Below, in pieces: positions 3,121 through 55,822 of a stretch of 64,000 bases of DNA. Source of the DNA: an uncultured Methanobrevibacter sp. (GTDB taxonomy: Archaea; Methanobacteriota; Methanobacteria; Methanobacteriales; Methanobacteriaceae); contig CADBPS010000041.1 of the NCBI GenBank assembly GCA_902796575.1, positions 5,926-69,925 of the forward strand, read 5' to 3'. Positions within the stretch are counted from its first letter, which is position 1; each line of letters begins with the position of its first letter. The position numbers were made by a program, and so were the translations under genes. The notes below the pieces were generated by a model. The model was given only the letters and a program-made list of their open reading frames with translations. It did not search any database and had not been told where the DNA came from.

Positions 3121-3966
3121 ATGGTTAAATGTCCAGATTGTGGTAAGGAAAGTGATAGTAAATTTTGTCCGAACTGTGGTAAAAACCTGGAAAAAACTAA
3201 TGTTTGTCCAAATTGCAAAAGTGAACTTGAGGAAAATGCAAAGTTTTGCCAGGAATGTGGAGAAAAAATTAACGGCAAAAGCAAAGAGAAAAAAAATACT
3301 AAACCCAAAAAAGAAAAAAAATCCGAAAAGACCTGTTCACACTGCGGTGAAGAACTTGAAAAAGATGAAATCTTCTGTTCGAACTGTGGGAAAAAAATTG
3401 AAGATAAAAGCAAAGAGAAAAAAAATACTAAACCCAAAAAAGAAAAAAAATCCGAAAAGACCTGTCCTCACTGTGGAGAAGAACTTGAAAAAGATGAAAT
3501 CTTCTGTTCAAGTTGTGGGAAAAAAATAGAAGTTGATGAAAACTCATTTGGAGGAATGTTAGGCACTATTGACTATAAAAAATTGATTATATCATCAATA
3601 ATTGGATTTTTAATATCATTCATACTTTCAATACTGTTATCAGCTATTGCAGGCCTGATAGGATTTGAAGCTTACACCTATCCCCTGGCTATTATACTTG
3701 CAACAGCTATAGGAGTATGGATCGCAGCATCTTCATTCAAGGATTTGCTGAATGCAGGTCTCGTTGGAATTGTAGTAGGATTTTTCACAGGATTATTATC
3801 AAACACATCGATTGAAATATCATCCGGATTCAAATACAGTTATGAATTGTTTTCAGGATACGAAATCATTATATTTACAGTAATCGGCTTTGTTATTGCA
3901 GTTGCAACCTATAAATTCCTGGGAAAATATGTTTTAAAATACATCGATATCGGGAAATTGATTTAA
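3121..3966 (+). CDS. Multi-zinc-ribbon (DZR) protein with C-terminal multi-TM domain
   Basis: Eight CxxC pairs followed by about 4 hydrophobic helices. Confidence 0.75.
   Translation: MVKCPDCGKESDSKFCPNCGKNLEKTNVCPNCKSELEENAKFCQECGEKINGKSKEKKNTKPKKEKKSEKTCSHCGEELEKDEIFCSNCGKKIEDKSKEKKNTKPKKEKKSEKTCPHCGEELEKDEIFCSSCGKKIEVDENSFGGMLGTIDYKKLIISSIIGFLISFILSILLSAIAGLIGFEAYTYPLAIILATAIGVWIAASSFKDLLNAGLVGIVVGFFTGLLSNTSIEISSGFKYSYELFSGYEIIIFTVIGFVIAVATYKFLGKYVLKYIDIGKLI
3277..3531 (+). repeat. 129-bp (43-aa) intragenic tandem duplication
   Basis: KSKEKKNTKPKKEKKSEKTCxHCGEELEKDEIFCSxCGKKIE occurs twice, 129 bp apart, near-identical at DNA level. Confidence 0.9.
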
Positions 3967-15322: not shown

Positions 15323-16444
15323 ATGATTATGAGTACACTGGAAAAGATGAAAATATTAACTGATTCAGCACAGTATGATTTATGCGATTATGTAAATCAT
15401 AATAGAAGCTCACAGGTTAATTTACCGGGAATTTATCATGCAACCGGACATAACGGATGTAAAATTCCATTATTCAAAACATTATTAACAAACAAATGTA
15501 AAAATGACTGTAAATACTGTATCAATCAGTCAAAAAGAAATTTTACAAGACTTGAACTGTCACCGCAGGAATTGGCTCACTCTTTTTTAAATTATTATAA
15601 CCGAGGATTGGTTAATGGATTATTTTTAAGTTCAGGAATTGATAAAGATGAAGACCTGACAATGGAAAAAACGATAGAAACCATCAGAATTTTGAGAAAA
15701 GACTATGGATATGATGATTATATTCACTTAAAAATTGTTCCGGGCGCTTCAAAGGATTCTATCAAAAGAGCTATGGCACTAGCTAATAGAGTAAGTATTA
15801 ATATTGAATCTGCAACAGCATCAGGATTAAGCGAATTATCATCAACAAAAGACTATAACAAAGATATACTGAAACGACTGTACTGGATTGACAAGATACA
15901 TGGAAAAAGTACAACCTACCCGAATTCATCACATACAACACAGGTTATTGTTGGTGCAAACAATGAAAGTGATAGGGAAATTCTACATAGAATGGAAAAA
16001 ATATACAATAAAACAAAATTAAGAGGTGCATATTACTCAGCATTTTCTCCTGTAGAAGATACAGAATTTGAAAATAAGGAAGAATGCAGTACTGACAGAA
16101 CAGCAAAATTATACAGTGCAAATAGTCTACTTAATGATTATCATTTTAAGCTTAAAGAAATAGTATTTGACGAAAATAACCAATTATCGCTGGAAACTGA
16201 TCCAAAAATATTAGCTGCTGAGAACATGGATATATTTCCTGTAGAAATTAATACTGCACCCTTTGTTGAACTGATACGTGTACCTGGAATTGGCATGAAA
16301 TCTGCAAGACAAATAATATCTATTAGAAAAAAAATTCCATTTGAAAATAAAAATCAGCTGAGAAAATTAGGTGTGGTTGTAGATAGGGCAGACAAATATA
16401 TTAAAATAAATGGAAATTATCAAAGTCTATTGGAGAATTTTTAG
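15323..16444 (+). CDS. Radical SAM protein with C-terminal helix-hairpin-helix (putative DNA modification/repair family)
   Basis: CKNDCKYC cluster motif, GLFLSSG, YIHLKIVPG, and HhH 'EINTAP..ELIRVPGIG.KSA..I'. Confidence 0.85.
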   Translation: MIMSTLEKMKILTDSAQYDLCDYVNHNRSSQVNLPGIYHATGHNGCKIPLFKTLLTNKCKNDCKYCINQSKRNFTRLELSPQELAHSFLNYYNRGLVNGLFLSSGIDKDEDLTMEKTIETIRILRKDYGYDDYIHLKIVPGASKDSIKRAMALANRVSINIESATASGLSELSSTKDYNKDILKRLYWIDKIHGKSTTYPNSSHTTQVIVGANNESDREILHRMEKIYNKTKLRGAYYSAFSPVEDTEFENKEECSTDRTAKLYSANSLLNDYHFKLKEIVFDENNQLSLETDPKILAAENMDIFPVEINTAPFVELIRVPGIGMKSARQIISIRKKIPFENKNQLRKLGVVVDRADKYIKINGNYQSLLENF

Positions 16445-16450
16445 TGGTGA

Positions 16451-16975
16451 TTAAATTCCTTCAAATAATTCCCATATATGAGGATACTTCTTAGAAACAG
16501 CCTCATCGATTAAAATAGAAGCTTCTCTACTAATACTAAATTCTGGTTCTGTTTTTCTTAAATATCTAAAAACAGCAGCAGATCTAGATGACCATAAAGT
16601 AATTCTCGGATTTTTGTCTACAATATCTAAGACTTCGGCGACATTTTCTTTTTTCTTGACTTCTTGTGTAGTTTGTAAAGTATCTTGAGGGTCTTCACTA
16701 GCAGATACCTTTTCGGATGCCTTATCTTGTGTATTTTCCTCTCCAATTCCATCAGTTGTCGTATCGTTCTTTCCAATGTCTTCACCTTCTGTATTCGTAT
16801 CAGATTTCTCTTCGCTGACAGTAGTAATATCATCTACAATAGATTCTATTTCATTTTCAGATTCATTTTTCTCATTCAAAATATCCTCTAAAGATTGGGA
16901 ACCATTACTGTCAAAATTTTCATCATAAATATTGGGAATTAATGAATCTAATCCCTTACCAAGACCACCGGCCAT
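16451..16975 (-). CDS. ParA partner protein: ParB-type N-terminal peptide, acidic linker, predicted RHH C-terminus
   Basis: N-terminal GLGKGLDSLI matches the ParB/Spo0J LG(R/K)GLxxLI motif; directly abuts parA; C-terminal RITLW-helix-helix pattern. Confidence 0.65.
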   Translation of the reverse strand: MAGGLGKGLDSLIPNIYDENFDSNGSQSLEDILNEKNESENEIESIVDDITTVSEEKSDTNTEGEDIGKNDTTTDGIGEENTQDKASEKVSASEDPQDTLQTTQEVKKKENVAEVLDIVDKNPRITLWSSRSAAVFRYLRKTEPEFSISREASILIDEAVSKKYPHIWELFEGI

Positions 16976-17794
16976 TTAATCACTCCTCCGATTCTTTTTT
17001 TCATTAATATTAGAATCTTCATTTAAACTATCCCTATCTAAAATTTCCTTAGCCAATTTCAAATAAGCTTTCGTTCCTGTACTGTCTGGATCATATATTA
17101 AACATGGCTTTCCAAAACTAGGAGCTTCAGCTAATCTAATATTTCTTGGAATTATAGTTTTAAAAAGCAAACCGTTACTGTCAAAATAATTTTTAAGTTC
17201 TTTATGAACATCCTTGCTTAATCTCGTTCTTCTGTCATATAATGTAAGTAAAATTCCTTTAATTGGAGTTGGACTTTTAAGTCTTCTTTCAACAAGTTCT
17301 ATTGTGCTTATTAAATCTGCAACTCCTTCAAGTGCATAATATTCAGCCTGAATCGGTATTAATACACTATTGGATGCGATAAGAGCATTGACAGTTATAA
17401 CCCCTAATGATGGAGGTAAATCAATAAAAATGTAATCAAATAATGGAACAACACCCTTAAGGGTTTCTTTTAAAATGTTATGATAATTTTCCTGTTTACT
17501 TAATTCTACACCTGCTCCACTTAATGACATATTACTTGGAACAATAAACAGATTTTTTATGAATGTCGGTTTGGTAACTTTCTTAATATCAATATCCCCA
17601 ACAATTGCATCATAAATTGTATTTTCTAATCTATTCTTATCAATTCCAAAACTTGTTGTTGCATTAGCCTGAGGATCCATATCTACAACCAAAACAGTTT
17701 TACCCATTACAGCCAGTGAAGTTGCAGTATTTACAACAGTTGTTGTTTTTCCACAACCACCTTTCTGGTTCATTACAGCTATGACTTCACTCAT
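16976..17794 (-). CDS. parA: ParA/Soj family ATPase
   Basis: Deviant Walker A NQKGGCGKTTT, DMDPQANAT, DLPPSLG, PIQAEYYALEG, IPRNIRLAEAPSFGKP. Confidence 0.93.
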   Translation of the reverse strand: MSEVIAVMNQKGGCGKTTTVVNTATSLAVMGKTVLVVDMDPQANATTSFGIDKNRLENTIYDAIVGDIDIKKVTKPTFIKNLFIVPSNMSLSGAGVELSKQENYHNILKETLKGVVPLFDYIFIDLPPSLGVITVNALIASNSVLIPIQAEYYALEGVADLISTIELVERRLKSPTPIKGILLTLYDRRTRLSKDVHKELKNYFDSNGLLFKTIIPRNIRLAEAPSFGKPCLIYDPDSTGTKAYLKLAKEILDRDSLNEDSNINEKKNRRSD

Positions 17795-17892
17795 TTAATT
17801 ATTCTCCTTATCATCAGTTCAAAGGGTTTGAATCCTATCGTGACTTGAGCTTTGGTATAACTTATAAATTATACCTTATACCTCAAATGAAA

Positions 17893-18358
17893 TAAGTTAT
17901 AAGTTAAACATTATTAGAAATAACATCTAATTTATCAATTAAACATTCTAAGTTAAAAGAAATAACTTCTAACAAATAAGTTAAACATTATCAACTTCTA
18001 ATTTATCAGTTAAACATTCTAAGTTAAAAGAAATAACTTCTAACAAATAAGTTAAACATTATCAACTTCTAATTTATCAGTTAAACGTTTTAAGTTAAAA
18101 GGAATAACTTTTAATAAATAAGTTATACCTTTTATCTTAAAAGTGATAAATTTTAAGTTATTTGGGACAAGTTAAAACGAATAACTTTTAACATATAAGT
18201 TATTATTGATAAGTTAAAAGGTCTAAGTTCTAACTCTTAAGTTATATTTTATAACTTCTACCTTATAAAGTATTTGTTTTCACAAATAAGTTAGTAGTTA
18301 TAAGTAATAAGTTATAATAAAAAAGAGATAATTATAAGTTATAAGTGATAAGTTATAA
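17893..18358. repeat. Array of TAAGTTA heptads, including a 71-bp unit repeated three times, upstream of parA
   Basis: 16 exact TAAGTTA copies counted, spaced mostly at multiples of 7; 71-bp units start at 17927, 17998 and 18069. Confidence 0.9.
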
Positions 18359-18397
18359 CAAAAAAATAAATAAAAAAAATAAGAAAAAAATTAATAA

Positions 18398-29798: not shown

Positions 29799-29896
29799 TA
29801 AGTTGTTAATTAAATTTATAAGTTATACTTATAAGTTATAAGTTATAAGATAGTGGAGTCATAAGTTAAAATAAATCACATCAGGGAAATAAGTTA
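29799..29896. repeat. Second TAAGTTA heptad cluster
   Basis: Exact copies at 29819, 29832, 29839, 29862 and 29890, plus near-matches. Confidence 0.7.
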
Positions 29897-29982
29897 TAAT
29901 GATTTTACAGGTTCTAAAAAAAACAATTTATATAAGTATTGAAAAATAGAATATTCTTATTATATTTATTTTAGGTGTTTTA

Positions 29983-39287: not shown

Positions 39288-40232
39288 ATGGCACAGGTGA
39301 TTAAAATTTTCAAGTTAAAAAATATAATCTCAATAAAAGACTTTGAAAGAGAAGATATTGATTATATTCTGGACGAAGCTTCAAAATTAGAGAATATTGC
39401 TCTATCTAAGGAAATTTCAGAAGAATTAAAAGGAAAAATATTAGGAATGATGTTTTTTGAACCATCTACAAGAACAAGATTATCATTTGAAACAGCAATG
39501 AAGCGTTTAAGCGGTAAATGCATTGGTTTTGAGGACAGTGTCTCTTCAAGTGTATCAAAAGGTGAAAGTATTGCTGATACGGCGAAAATGTTTGAAGGAT
39601 ATAGTGATGCATTAGTGATAAGACATGAATTGGAAGGTGTATCAAAATTTATATCAGATATAGTTAATGTTCCTGTTATTAATGCCGGTGATGGAGCTGG
39701 TCAGCATCCAACTCAAACATTACTTGATTTATACACTATAAAAAAAGAATTAAAATCTATTGATAATATTAAAATTGCATTAATAGGAGATTTAAAATTT
39801 GGACGTACAGTACATTCCCTGGCAAATGCCCTGACATTATATGACAATATTGAACTTTATCTGGTTTCACCTCCTGAATTAAAGATGCCACAGGAAATAC
39901 TTCATGATCTGGATAAAAAAGAAATGTCATATACTGAAGTTTCAAATATTAATGAAATAATCGATAAGGTTGATGTATTATATGTTACCCGAATTCAAAA
40001 AGAACGCTTTGGAGATATTAATGATTATTTAAAAATAAAAGGAGCATATGTTATTAATAAAAAAATGCTGGAAGGTAGGAAATTGATAGTAATGCACCCA
40101 CTGCCTAGAATTGATGAAATAGATACCGATGTCGATGACACAAAATACAACAAATATTTCACTCAGGCAGCCAATGCAGTACCTGTCAGAATGGCTATCT
40201 TAAAAACATTAATTAACAATAATCCTAAATAG
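39288..40232 (+). CDS. pyrB: Aspartate carbamoyltransferase catalytic subunit
   Basis: [27 protein letters not shown]. Confidence 0.97.
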
Positions 40233-41394
40233 ACTGCAGGAGTGTTGATTCCAATAAATCTTCATCACATTGCAGTTTGATTATATTGGTTCTTCCTTTT
40301 CCGCGTCCGCGTGAAATTGTGTTTGTTGAAATTATTCCAAGCAGTTCCAAATCATTAATGAAATCAAAAATACGCCTGTATGTGACAGCATCTTTTTTGG
40401 ATACATCTGTGTATGCTTCATAAAGTTTACCGGAAGTTATTTCTTCTTTTTTATTTGTTAAATTTAAAATAGCTTCAAGAAGCCTTAACTGTTGAATCGG
40501 CAGAGATTTAATAACATCAACAAATTTATTGTGTTCTATTCTGTCTTTTGCCAATCTTACATGTTCACTTTTTAAAGTTTCTGAACCTTGCTCTTCGGCA
40601 ATATCTCCTGATGTTCGCAGTAAATCAAGTGCAAATCTGGCATCTCCTTCTTCTTTAGCAGCCATTGCAGAACATAATGGTATTACATCACTTTCAACTA
40701 CACCTTCATTAAAAGCCAGTTTTGCCCTTTCATTTAAAATATCAGTTAACTGGTTTGCACCATAGGGTGGAAATACTATTTCCTTATCATTCAGGCTGCT
40801 TGTAACTCTGGATTTAATCAATGCTTTAAAATCCAGGAAATTACTGATTGATAAGACAGATACATTATCAGTTCTTGTTAAAGTATATAAAATTCCATCT
40901 CCATCTTTATTAAGCAATATATCAATCTCATCTAAAATTACGATTAAAATCAATTTTTTTCCATGGATGTTAGTTCTGAAAATGTCTCTGAATGTATTTA
41001 TAACTTCAGCTTTGGTCCAGCCTCTATATGGAACATCACGGCCTAATTTCTGACATAAATGAGCAATAACCTGATATTCTGTTGAATAATCTGTGCATCT
41101 GACATATTCTATTTTGATAAAAACATTCTGATCAGCTGAATATTCAAGAAGCTGTGATCTGGCAAATTTTGCAGAAGCAGTCTTTCCTGTACCAGTTTTT
41201 CCATAAATAGTTATGTTTGAAGGAGTAACATCGTTCAATGCATCAACCCAATATCTAGCTATTTGAGTAACCTGATCTTCTCTATGTAATAGTCTTTTTG
41301 GCAAAAATAAATGTTTTAAAGAATTTTTATCCTTAAATATAAAATTATTTTTTTGTACTGTTTCAAAAATATTAATTTCCCCGTCCTTAGTCAT
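40225..41394 (-). CDS. cdc6: Orc1/Cdc6 replication initiator
   Basis: [26 protein letters not shown], winged helix SRGRGKGRT. Confidence 0.96.
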
Positions 41395-41419
41395 ACTGCC
41401 ACCATCTGCTACAAGTAGT

Positions 41420-41890
41420 ATTTCAAGTGTTAATATATTATTTGTAATTTTAAATAAAGTTTTTCATTAAAAGTAAAATAATTAAAAAAAGTTTATAATA
41501 AAAAATAAGAAATTAAAATCATTATTTAAGATTAATTAAAAAATAAAATAAAATTATTAGGAATATAAACATAAAACAATATTAATATTAAAAATTAATG
41601 ATTTTAGATTAAATTAAAAAAGAAATGCAAAAAGAGAGAGAGGTGTATTTCAAGTGTATTGAAAAATTTCAAGGGAAAGTAAAATCAAGACAACAATTTC
41701 AAGTGTAACTTTAAAAAAAATTCTGATTAAAAAGTGTTAAAACAAAAATAAAGAAATTAGAATCATTTAAAATGAATTTTAAAGATGAAAAAAATAGATG
41801 GTTTTCAAGTGTATTTTACAGTTGAAATATACCTCTTCGTTCAGAATATATCTCCGTAAGTGTTACACTTGAAATGGACCTCTGTCTCTC
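41420..41890. other. Chromosomal replication origin (oriC): ORB/mini-ORB cluster with AT-rich unwinding region
   Basis: TTACA(C/G)TTGAAAT-type boxes at 41420, 41647, 41696 and 41802 (reverse) and 41816 and 41863 (forward); extended inverted ORBs; directly upstream of cdc6. Confidence 0.9.
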
Positions 41891-42379
41891 TTAGATGAAC
41901 ATTGAATTTTCATTGGATGGAGTTGGAGTAGGGCTTGGAACACCAAATGTTTTCTCAATTAACCATACACATTGTAATTTTGATTTAAATACTTTTTTAA
42001 GAGATAAAAATAGATTATTTTTACTAATACCATCACTGAAAATTTGATCAGTAATTACAAATTGTTGTAATAAATTATTTTCATTGTTAATTGCTAACTG
42101 ACAGTCAACTAAAAATTTATTGATTTCCATATTAACATCTAAAATAAATTCATGTCTTTTGCTGAGGTCTGCTTTACTCATTAATTCCAAATGCTGAGGG
42201 GAAACCTGTGTTGCACATGCAATGATAATAAAGTCTTTGCCGATTGGTTTAACAATATCCATTATATTATCCTTTGGAAACTCAACAATAAAATGAAAAT
42301 CAGCGTCGTTATCAGGTTTTATTTCTCTAAATATTCCTTCATCAACAATCCAGTTTTTAACATCTTCTTCACGTATCAT
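41891..42379 (-). CDS. Conserved archaeal hypothetical protein (DUF2299-like)
   Basis: 'VKNWIVDEG..ADFHF..P' pattern; adjacent to the origin. Confidence 0.65.
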   Translation of the reverse strand: MIREEDVKNWIVDEGIFREIKPDNDADFHFIVEFPKDNIMDIVKPIGKDFIIIACATQVSPQHLELMSKADLSKRHEFILDVNMEINKFLVDCQLAINNENNLLQQFVITDQIFSDGISKNNLFLSLKKVFKSKLQCVWLIEKTFGVPSPTPTPSNENSMFI

Positions 42380-55360: not shown

Positions 55361-55822
55361 ATGAATGATGAAAAAACTGGAATATTACTTTTAAGTCACG
55401 GATCAAGATTAAAAGAAGGTGAAGATGTTATTAAAGCATATAAGGAAATGTATGAAGAGGAATATCCTGATTCTATTGTTGAATATGGATTCATGGAAAT
55501 TAGAAAACCAGGAATTCCTGAATCTATAAATAAACTGGCCAAAAATAATGATTTGGATAAAATTATTGTTGTACCAGTATTTATTGCACATGGTCTTCAT
55601 ACCAAAAGGGATATTCCAAAGCTTTTAGGAATTGAAAGTGATTTTGAAGAGGATTCACATCATCATCACCATCATCACGAACACGGTCATCATCACCACC
55701 ACCATCATGACCATGATGAGGAAGAAATTGAATTTAATGGTGAAATAGTTCTGACAGACCCTTTAGGCATTGATACAAGGGTGTATGAAATTATTAAAGA
55801 TAGAATTTCCCAATATAAATAA
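55361..55822 (+). CDS. cfbA: Sirohydrochlorin nickel/cobalt chelatase (CfbA/CbiXS)
   Basis: SHGSR, GFME, PVFIAHGLHTKRDIP, poly-His insert. Confidence 0.85.
   Translation: MNDEKTGILLLSHGSRLKEGEDVIKAYKEMYEEEYPDSIVEYGFMEIRKPGIPESINKLAKNNDLDKIIVVPVFIAHGLHTKRDIPKLLGIESDFEEDSHHHHHHHEHGHHHHHHHDHDEEEIEFNGEIVLTDPLGIDTRVYEIIKDRISQYK

Follow-up and report, generated by a model that had tools for sequence, protein, structure and literature searches.

A SegAB-type partition locus and its origin-side heptad arrays in Methanobrevibacter and other Methanobacteria

The segAB pair and its products

The stretch of DNA analysed here (the window) comprises 64,000 nt of an uncultured Methanobrevibacter sp. of the class Methanobacteria (assembly GCA_902796575.1, contig CADBPS010000041.1, positions 5,926 to 69,925 of the forward strand). 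It contains a near-core SegAB-type partition locus; by domain content its adaptor belongs to the SegB family and is not a ParB, and its ATPase is not a Sulfolobales SegA. The gene parA/segA (16976..17794, minus strand) encodes a Soj-type Walker ATPase of 272 aa (Pfam AAA_31, E 9.6e-61); segB (16451..16975, minus strand), directly 3' of it with a gap of 0 nt, encodes a predicted DNA-binding adaptor of 174 aa, beginning MAGGLGKGLDSLIP. An array of heptad repeats (17850..18362) fills the gap between parA and an upstream TrpB-like gene. An earlier note on this DNA had proposed a chromosome segregation system here, and was right that a Soj-like ParA with basic DNA-binding residues is followed by its partner without a gap.

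The ATPase carries the motifs KGGCGKT, DRRTRLS and PRNIRL. Its best PDB matches are bacterial ParA/Soj proteins (8RAY, E 3e-71; Helicobacter pylori Soj, E 8e-63), against only E 4e-16 for Sulfolobus SegA (7DUT). It is 46-49% identical to bacterial ParA and, over part of its length, 30-33% identical to Sulfolobaceae-type SegA; it does not have the divergent sequence of about 220 aa typical of a SegA-type ATPase. Residues K11, G12, K16, D40, R189, and R220 align with K11, G12, K16, D40, R189, and R218 of Priestia Soj, in the case of R189 on the basis of a 14-row alignment and a pairwise comparison with the Priestia protein. K11, G12, K16, D40, R189, and R218 are presumably the functional positions of B. 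subtilis Soj. In a review covered by a term search (PMC9178275; all papers are cited here by PMC accession, from those portions of their text that were available), neither R189 nor R218 is given. In an unrooted ParA tree of 41 rows, from which 10 near-redundant loci were left out, the Sulfolobaceae-type SegAs form a separate branch of length 4.2, with support of 100/100.

The 174-aa partner matches no family in Pfam or NCBIfam, and no ParB is among its matches in Pfam, NCBIfam, or the PDB. The earlier note had described it as lacking the ParB CTPase (GxxR) and helix-turn-helix (HTH) domains, with an acidic linker of about 100 aa and a compact C-terminus taken to be a domain of the ribbon-helix-helix (RHH) type. 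All of this holds: there is no GxxR, the linker is 94 aa long with 28 D/E against 7 K/R, and the C-terminal domain (residues 105-174; 16454..16663, minus strand) is by model an RHH of the SegB type. Its AlphaFold2 (AF2) model has a predicted local distance difference test score (pLDDT) of 89.8 and is superposed by VIA on SegB 7DUV with Z 8.6 and a root-mean-square deviation of 2.1 over 68 residues; omega comes next, at a middling Z of 4.9. Foldseek matches the model to 7DV2 (TM 0.76, E 2.3e-3). The AF2 model of the full-length protein is uninformative (pLDDT 54). By sequence, the domain matches SegB 7DUV with E 7.6e-7 in the PDB search and E 1.4e-20 with an 80-sequence family profile. In the PDB-match alignment, the DNA contacts of Saccharolobus solfataricus (Sso) SegB, K52, W56, S77, and R78, and its stacking residue P72 (PMC8682754) are kept as R124, W128, S149, R150, and P144; Sso G54 corresponds to T126. 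The segment KNPRITLWS fits the first nine positions of the SegB signature K/R-D/N-P-K/R-I-G/T-V/L-WS-Y/P-P/E, its last two positions being S-R rather than Y/P-P/E, and Methanobacteriales proteins are counted among the SegB members in the same paper (PMC12139799). By C-domain sequence and predicted fold the partner is thus a true SegB homologue. The note's “SegB-like” understated the case, this being an actual member of the SegB family (PMC12139799, PMC5120986). Identity as a degenerate ParB was considered and rejected, there being no GxxR, no ParB match, and an RHH fold.

At the other end of the protein, residues 5-13 (LGKGLDSLI; 16937..16963, minus strand) make up a ParB-type peptide that is predicted to bind ParA. 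The motif LG-x-GL-x-x-L occurs in all 67 parA-linked SegB loci, and a similar one (e.g., LGKGLDALI) at the N-terminus of seven of the eight bacterial ParBs fetched, so that the ParA-stimulating peptide claimed earlier is upheld as a sequence motif. A literature search for the LGRGL motif together with ParA and ParB found nothing. In H. pylori, ParB contacts ParA via peptide residues L7 and R9, with F52 of HpParA as the cation-pi partner of R9 (PMC11229316). A complex predicted from SegB residues 1-34, a ParA dimer, ATP, and Mg scored 0.35 against 0.00 for the best control (run agreement at least 77%, partner pLDDT at least 54), passing a mark that is reached by 116 of 157 solved pairs and 2 of 215 mismatched ones, both of the latter at 0.60 or below. 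The pass may reflect memory, because similar complexes have already been solved, and the prediction lends weak support to a peptide-ParA contact.

On the far side of segB, a gene with radical-SAM and helix-hairpin-helix domains (15323-16444; TIGR03916-like, below cut-off) converges on it across a 6-nt gap. The same neighbor also follows segB in distant genera (G080, G073, G126).

Heptad arrays and the origin region

The main array upstream of parA is a candidate centromere and operator of the form (TTATAA-S)n, where S is G or C, with phased AASTT cores. Its exact AA(G/C)TT cores number 26, where 1000 shuffles average 2.6 and never exceed 10; near-exact cores are separated by 48 spacings, among them 17 of 7 nt and 14 of 14 nt, and the strand-symmetrised consensus is TTATAA-S-TTATAA. 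Nowhere else in the 1.97-Mb assembly are AASTT words so dense (12 per 200 bp here, 8 in the next stretch, 0.7 on average). Shuffles and genome-wide density together rule out an AT-rich artefact. A 71-bp unit is present in 2.9 copies (94% match) at 17922-18125; the 7-nt phase slips by one base per copy, which points to recent expansion of the array by duplication.

Within the array, the word TACTTTATAA (18263..18272, minus strand) is likely the TATA box of the operon, judging by its conservation: it recurs in 29 of 46 upstream regions, and in short arrays stands 45-58 nt ahead of the start codon. The presence of this conserved TATA-like word inside the array makes autoregulation plausible. A sigma-70 promoter scan, a method unsuited to archaea, returned fewer sites than shuffles did.

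Upstream arrays are widely kept, with at least five near-matches within 600 nt 5' of parA in 45 of the 46 loci with enough flank. In this genus they are about 300-500 bp long; those of families f2 and f3 measure about 60 bp. The earlier proposal that the upstream array is the centromere is supported by this conservation, but the array is just one of several origin-proximal clusters, and the segAB promoter of one genome (G051) has none. The window itself contains a second heptad cluster (29807..29900), between a HAD-family gene and gatA and half-way from segAB to the origin, which the earlier reading of a single array had missed. The corresponding position is also occupied in G017, 11.8 kb from cdc6. 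Together the main array and the second cluster account for 9 of the 28 genome-wide 13-mers at no more than one mismatch in the window's genome (G000), and for 5 of its 7 three-unit 20-mers at no more than two mismatches (control, 0). The Sulfolobus motif TCTAGA-S-TCTAGA has no site in this genome at up to one mismatch.

The likely oriC is an AT-rich gap (41395..41893) with six boxes resembling origin recognition boxes (ORB-like; 41421, 41648, 41697, 41803, 41818, 41865), found by box search next to cdc6/orc1 (40225..41394, minus strand; TIGR02928, 388 bits, above cut-off). The same ORB-like 13-mer also clusters 5' of cdc6 in G049, G040, and G074. The cdc6 gene and its boxes are about 23.5 kb from the main array, in agreement with the 24 kb given in the earlier note. 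As to the conservation that it proposed to check, gene pair, ParB-type peptide, array, and proximity to oriC are all conserved across Methanobacteriales. In two genomes (G039:C3:320625-321773 and G048:C1:1260655-1261803), the cdc6 match holds one TGA stop.

Clusters were searched for in 25 single-contig genomes (G122 and G144 were left out), using a three-unit 20-mer with up to two mismatches, its reversed form as control, and cdc6 as proxy for the origin. The 20-mer was used because the 13-mer at up to one mismatch is unspecific in AT-rich genomes (31 sites against 33 for the control in G051). It matched 234 sites and its reversed control 24, and it had no match in five unrelated archaea. The 234 sites group into 102 clusters, with one to seven array clusters per genome. 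Of the 69 clusters more than 2.5 kb from segB, 49 have segB within 110 kb and 44 have cdc6 within that distance, where 7.4 would be expected under a uniform distribution, an enrichment that is descriptive and carries no formal test, the 110-kb window having been picked after inspection of the data and the genomes being kin. Among multi-site clusters, 39 of 44 are near segB, and segB itself is within 70 kb of cdc6 in 21 of the 25 genomes. In the 20 stretches inspected, clusters occupy small gaps between genes, stop codons, or the DNA just 3' of segB, next to unrelated housekeeping genes, a placement that favors a role of position over one in regulation.

The genome without a promoter array, G051, has an arrangement of its own. 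Its 18 perfect 13-mers all belong to six tetrads, perfect and 27 bp long, that lie at 1.074-1.136 Mb, at distances of 30-94 kb from segAB. In five near-identical cassettes facing inward over 25 kb (C1:1073572-1098068, L081-L084), a tetrad is paired with an ORB-like box 21-29 bp away; three of these boxes point one way and two the opposite way, and they make up five of the seven perfect ORB 13-mers in the genome. They share a purine-rich flank with the oriC boxes of the window. The short gap upstream of G051 cdc6 contains no ORB-like box. The GC, AT, and coding skews of this genome (about 96% of it) switch near 0.55 and 1.22 Mb and give no clear origin at the ORB cassettes.

Distribution, proposed function, and alternatives

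Far from scarce, segB is a near-core gene of the class: it was found in 284 of the 301 genomes drawn from the phylum, in 215 of the 223 high-quality ones, and in 30 of 30 genera. In 67 of 68 distinct loci it lies directly 3' of a ParA-family gene; the remaining locus is cut by a contig end, and a broken segB in G093 was left out of the count. Housekeeping genes surround the pair, and in relatives it is carried on complete chromosomes. Its near-core spread led to the rejection of a plasmid or island origin. Several genomes of family f1 have second or third parA-segB cassettes far from the origin (L072-L077, L079, L080), possibly on integrated elements; one type of these has the N-terminus SRSPLQER, the strand RLAFW, and the heptad TAAAAA-S. 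Upstream of paralogous cassettes, the strand RLAFW goes with TAAAAA-S heptads in four of four cases and the strand RISFW with TTATAA-like words in two or three of four; loci from Archaeoglobi have TTATCA or TTATAA units. These few independent points suggest that the sequence of the beta strand may encode the choice of hexamer.

Probably, this is the chromosomal segAB system of Methanobacteria, in which a Soj-type ATPase works with an RHH SegB bound to origin-side TTATAA-S clusters, and ParA stimulated by the SegB peptide parts the new origins. The observations behind it are homology, a matching fold, patterns of joint loss, and the conserved peptide, arrays, and position. SegB dimers would polymerise on the heptad clusters around the origin, presumably with one dimer per heptad and cooperative stacking through P144 (Sso P72). 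The ParB-type peptide at the SegB N-terminus would contact nucleoid-bound ParA and stimulate its ATPase, giving a DNA relay without a CTP clamp in which several fixed clusters might stand in for ParB spreading, and by which newly replicated origin regions would be pulled apart by ParA-SegB. SegB on the promoter-overlapping array may also repress segAB itself.

A number of observations weigh against such a system. In addition to the after-the-fact choice of the 110-kb window, clusters are poor or misplaced in some genomes: G080 has two weak sites; G110 has two, against six in its control; G126 has the promoter cluster only; G070 and G092 have only far single sites beyond the promoter array; and two clusters in G073 are about 700 kb off. 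The distance from segB to cdc6 is 309 kb in G040 and 202 kb in G051. Among the proteins, the basic residue of the peptide is replaced in part of the loci (x is K or R in 56 of 67, M in 10, and L in one), the position of HpParA F52 is I51 in this ParA, and Sso K75, K81, and Y68 are not conserved (S147, S153, and R140). The system is also dispensable in one genus, g26, where no ParA orthologue was found in any of four genomes. One of these (G187) has an intact RHH SegB without the peptide, plus a mini-array; another (G093) has a frameshifted, peptide-less segB, a mini-array, and a transposase-like gene; G170 and G228 lack both segB and array, with the two flanking genes now adjoining, and have no more than background sites across the genome (0 and 2, with 3 and 0 in the controls). 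On the supporting side, this series (L097, L211, L225, L226) ties the peptide to parA and the arrays to segB. The loss seems stepwise, with parA and the peptide going first and segB and the array later. A last point against the proposal is that G095 (98% complete, 20 contigs) has 25 sites with neither segB nor parA found, and five further drafts likewise keep arrays while segAB was not found. In five of these six drafts the neighboring radical-SAM gene is missing too, and in the sixth a contig end truncates it; the arrays of G010 and G009 run up to a contig end. This makes an assembly gap the likely cause in the drafts, G095 among them. At G095:C5:3497-90372 (L214-L218) there are at least eight heptad clusters, the first at the end of cdc6.

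Four other explanations can be set against a partition system. It is unlikely that the arrays are operators only, with SegB repressing its own operon and a few neighbors and any centromere lying elsewhere. The array does overlap a conserved TATA-like word, several distal clusters are just 5' of start codons, RHH proteins such as omega are repressors according to their PDB titles, and the mini-array before segB outlasts the loss of parA; but clusters also lie directly 3' of segB in about 10 genomes and on stop codons in co-directional strings, the neighbors (ilvE/uppP, ferredoxin/hisB, hisG, and gatA, mostly identified by their sequence) seem to have no function in common, the clusters are all in one origin-side region, and none of the six perfect G051 tetrads is at the segAB promoter. 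SegB might instead bridge or compact an origin-side domain, ParA having only a modulating role and no active transport of origins taking place. Sulfolobus SegB and SegA do compact and link DNA (PMC12284271, PMC12139799), the clusters are 5-30 kb apart, and SegB is kept without its peptide in G187, as are stand-alone SegB-like proteins in four families of another phylum. That ParA retains all the catalytic and DNA-binding residues of Soj, however, and that all 67 parA-linked loci have the peptide, which is lost only with parA, make this quite unlikely.

Soj regulates DnaA in Bacillus, and the main role of the system could be control of replication initiation, with SegB clusters bringing ParA or ORB boxes to Cdc6. 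This would suit G051, where five of seven perfect ORB 13-mers are 21-29 bp from a perfect tetrad and none is 5' of cdc6, and G095, where a cluster abuts the end of cdc6. It is nevertheless very unlikely, as ORBs and arrays are kilobases apart in G049, G040, G074, and G017, the G051 skews do not point at the cassette region, and the cassettes may merely be a duplicated repeat. Least credible of all is that a different protein binds the heptads and the link to segB is one of position only: the arrays in G095 and five drafts in which segB was not found could be read in that way, but those of G010 and G009 end at contig ends, the radical-SAM neighbor is missing or cut in all six drafts, and the clean segB deletions of G170 and G228 have lost the arrays as well.

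Two further features of the window concern other genes. A 129-bp tandem repeat in 2.1 copies (3256-3532) lies in a gene with Cys-x2-Cys zinc-ribbon-like motifs, and a His-rich repeat (55658-55719) ends a 153-aa gene, which by eye resembles a CbiX/CfbA chelatase.

Evolution and comparison with known systems

Three of 81 genomes of the class Archaeoglobi also pair a Soj-like ParA with a peptide-bearing SegB, and distant SegB representatives commonly have the peptide. When named genomes, in which taxon-labelled sampling is thin, were scanned with a distant SegB, a single locus turned up. In the phylum of G053, a SegB-like domain occurs in 47 of 251 genomes. Of the 30 loci examined there, the four from family f29 combine a divergent SegA with an MSELD start as in Sulfolobus, and the other 26, spread over four further families, lack a parA next to them. 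In those four families, every sampled genome (38 of 38) encodes short SegB-like RHH proteins that stand alone (L173-L202), with neither the peptide nor a neighboring parA. Some proteins of 155-215 aa (P0184, P0192, P0194, P0212, P0214, P0216, and others) appear to hold two SegB-like RHH repeats per chain.

In the ParA tree the f29 SegAs are on a long separate branch; with the tree unrooted and its base unsettled, no direction of transfer is shown. A transfer of segAB from Sulfolobaceae has been proposed (PMC12139799). On that route, segB would have had to arrive by itself behind a Soj-type gene and acquire a ParB peptide; the reverse order looks simpler, and the proposed transfer is put in question. 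A bolder combination, which we regard as doubtful, is that the SegB clusters are parS-like marks of the origin domain, which at least one lineage (G051) has fused to ORB boxes as a dispersed, SegB-bridged origin with centromere and replicator in one structure, its five cassettes facing inward as do the boxes of an ordinary oriC and its cdc6 lacking a box, and that the Soj-type, ParB-peptide SegAB, shared with Archaeoglobi, is older and the Sulfolobales form derived, contrary to the direction of transfer in print.

The earlier note knew of no characterised system of this kind in Methanobacteriales. No experimental study was found, but segAB pairs there were already in print: segAB in Euryarchaea is noted in PMC5120986, and PMC12139799 gives 22 euryarchaeal SegBs next to ParA-like genes, naming Methanobacteriales, with N-termini of unknown function. 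Centromere position and SegAB variation in Euryarchaea are listed as unanswered (PMC5120986), and in Thermococcus the Sulfolobus motif was looked for around segAB without a match, according to the available text of PMC12284271. For the TTATAA-S site, its clustering, and the methanogen peptide, no published description was found in main texts (subscription papers were largely outside the search, and supplements outside it). A candidate SegB site, a map of such sites, and a putative activating peptide are now at hand for the whole class of gut and biogas methanogens, of which one is reported to be diploid with prompt segregation; the segAB cassette could be tried as a stabiliser of methanogen shuttle vectors.

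Among other systems, Dip (PMC13228585, as far as its available text goes) is unrelated. HpaAB of Haloferax volcanii pHV3 (PMC13722703), likened here by description, likewise joins a bacterial-type archaeal ParA to a non-ParB adaptor with an N-terminal ParA-interacting region, but it acts on a secondary chromosome, and the portions of that paper available make no link to SegB or Methanobacteriales. The type Ib systems (pSM19035 delta-omega-parS, TP228 ParF-ParG) share an RHH adaptor with a flexible ParA-stimulating tail and tandem heptads of mixed orientation that overlap the promoter, heptad binding by omega being named in the title of 2BNW. They are plasmid-borne, whereas the methanogen locus is chromosomal core; there is no sequence similarity to omega (8% identity), and the methanogen protein has an extra N-terminal helix, as does SegB.

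With SegAB/segS of Saccharolobus solfataricus and Sulfolobus acidocaldarius (Saci; 7DUV, 7DV2, 7DUT) the methanogen pair has in common a homologous RHH domain, the placement of segB immediately after the ATPase gene, an N-terminal tail and C-terminal DNA-binding domain with a variable linker between them, and a 13-bp 6-S-6 site in 7-nt phase, with sites at the promoter and elsewhere. The Sulfolobus SegB motif from chromatin immunoprecipitation (ChIP) is TCTAGA-S-TCTAGA (PMC12284271), and Saci segS consists of three 7-nt repeats (PMC12139799). Further traits of the Sulfolobales system are a SegA dimer of non-sandwich form that binds DNA independently of ATP, stimulation of the ATPase by the SegB N-terminus, and anucleate cells upon deletion. 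The methanogen system differs in its Soj-like ATPase, in the N-terminus LG(K/R)GLxxL in place of MSELDF, and in the hexamer TTATAA in place of TCTAGA; its sites are mostly intergenic tandem clusters by one origin, whereas Sso ChIP peaks are scattered and 84% intragenic, and its promoter array has grown to about 500 bp in this genus.

Bacterial ParABS (Soj/Spo0J; PMC11229316) resembles the methanogen pair in its Soj-type ParA with signature lysine and DNA-binding arginines, in the N-terminal LG(R/K)GL peptide, and in having several origin-close sites (exceptions are G040, G051, G073, G080, and G126); a common ParA-binding motif thus links archaeal SegB to bacterial ParB. Methanogen SegB has an RHH domain instead of the CTPase GxxR domain and HTH, which makes a CTP clamp impossible, and the sites are heptad arrays, not the 16-bp parS palindromes of bacteria. 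By analogy, methanogen SegAB likely works as bacterial ParABS does, minus the CTP clamp.

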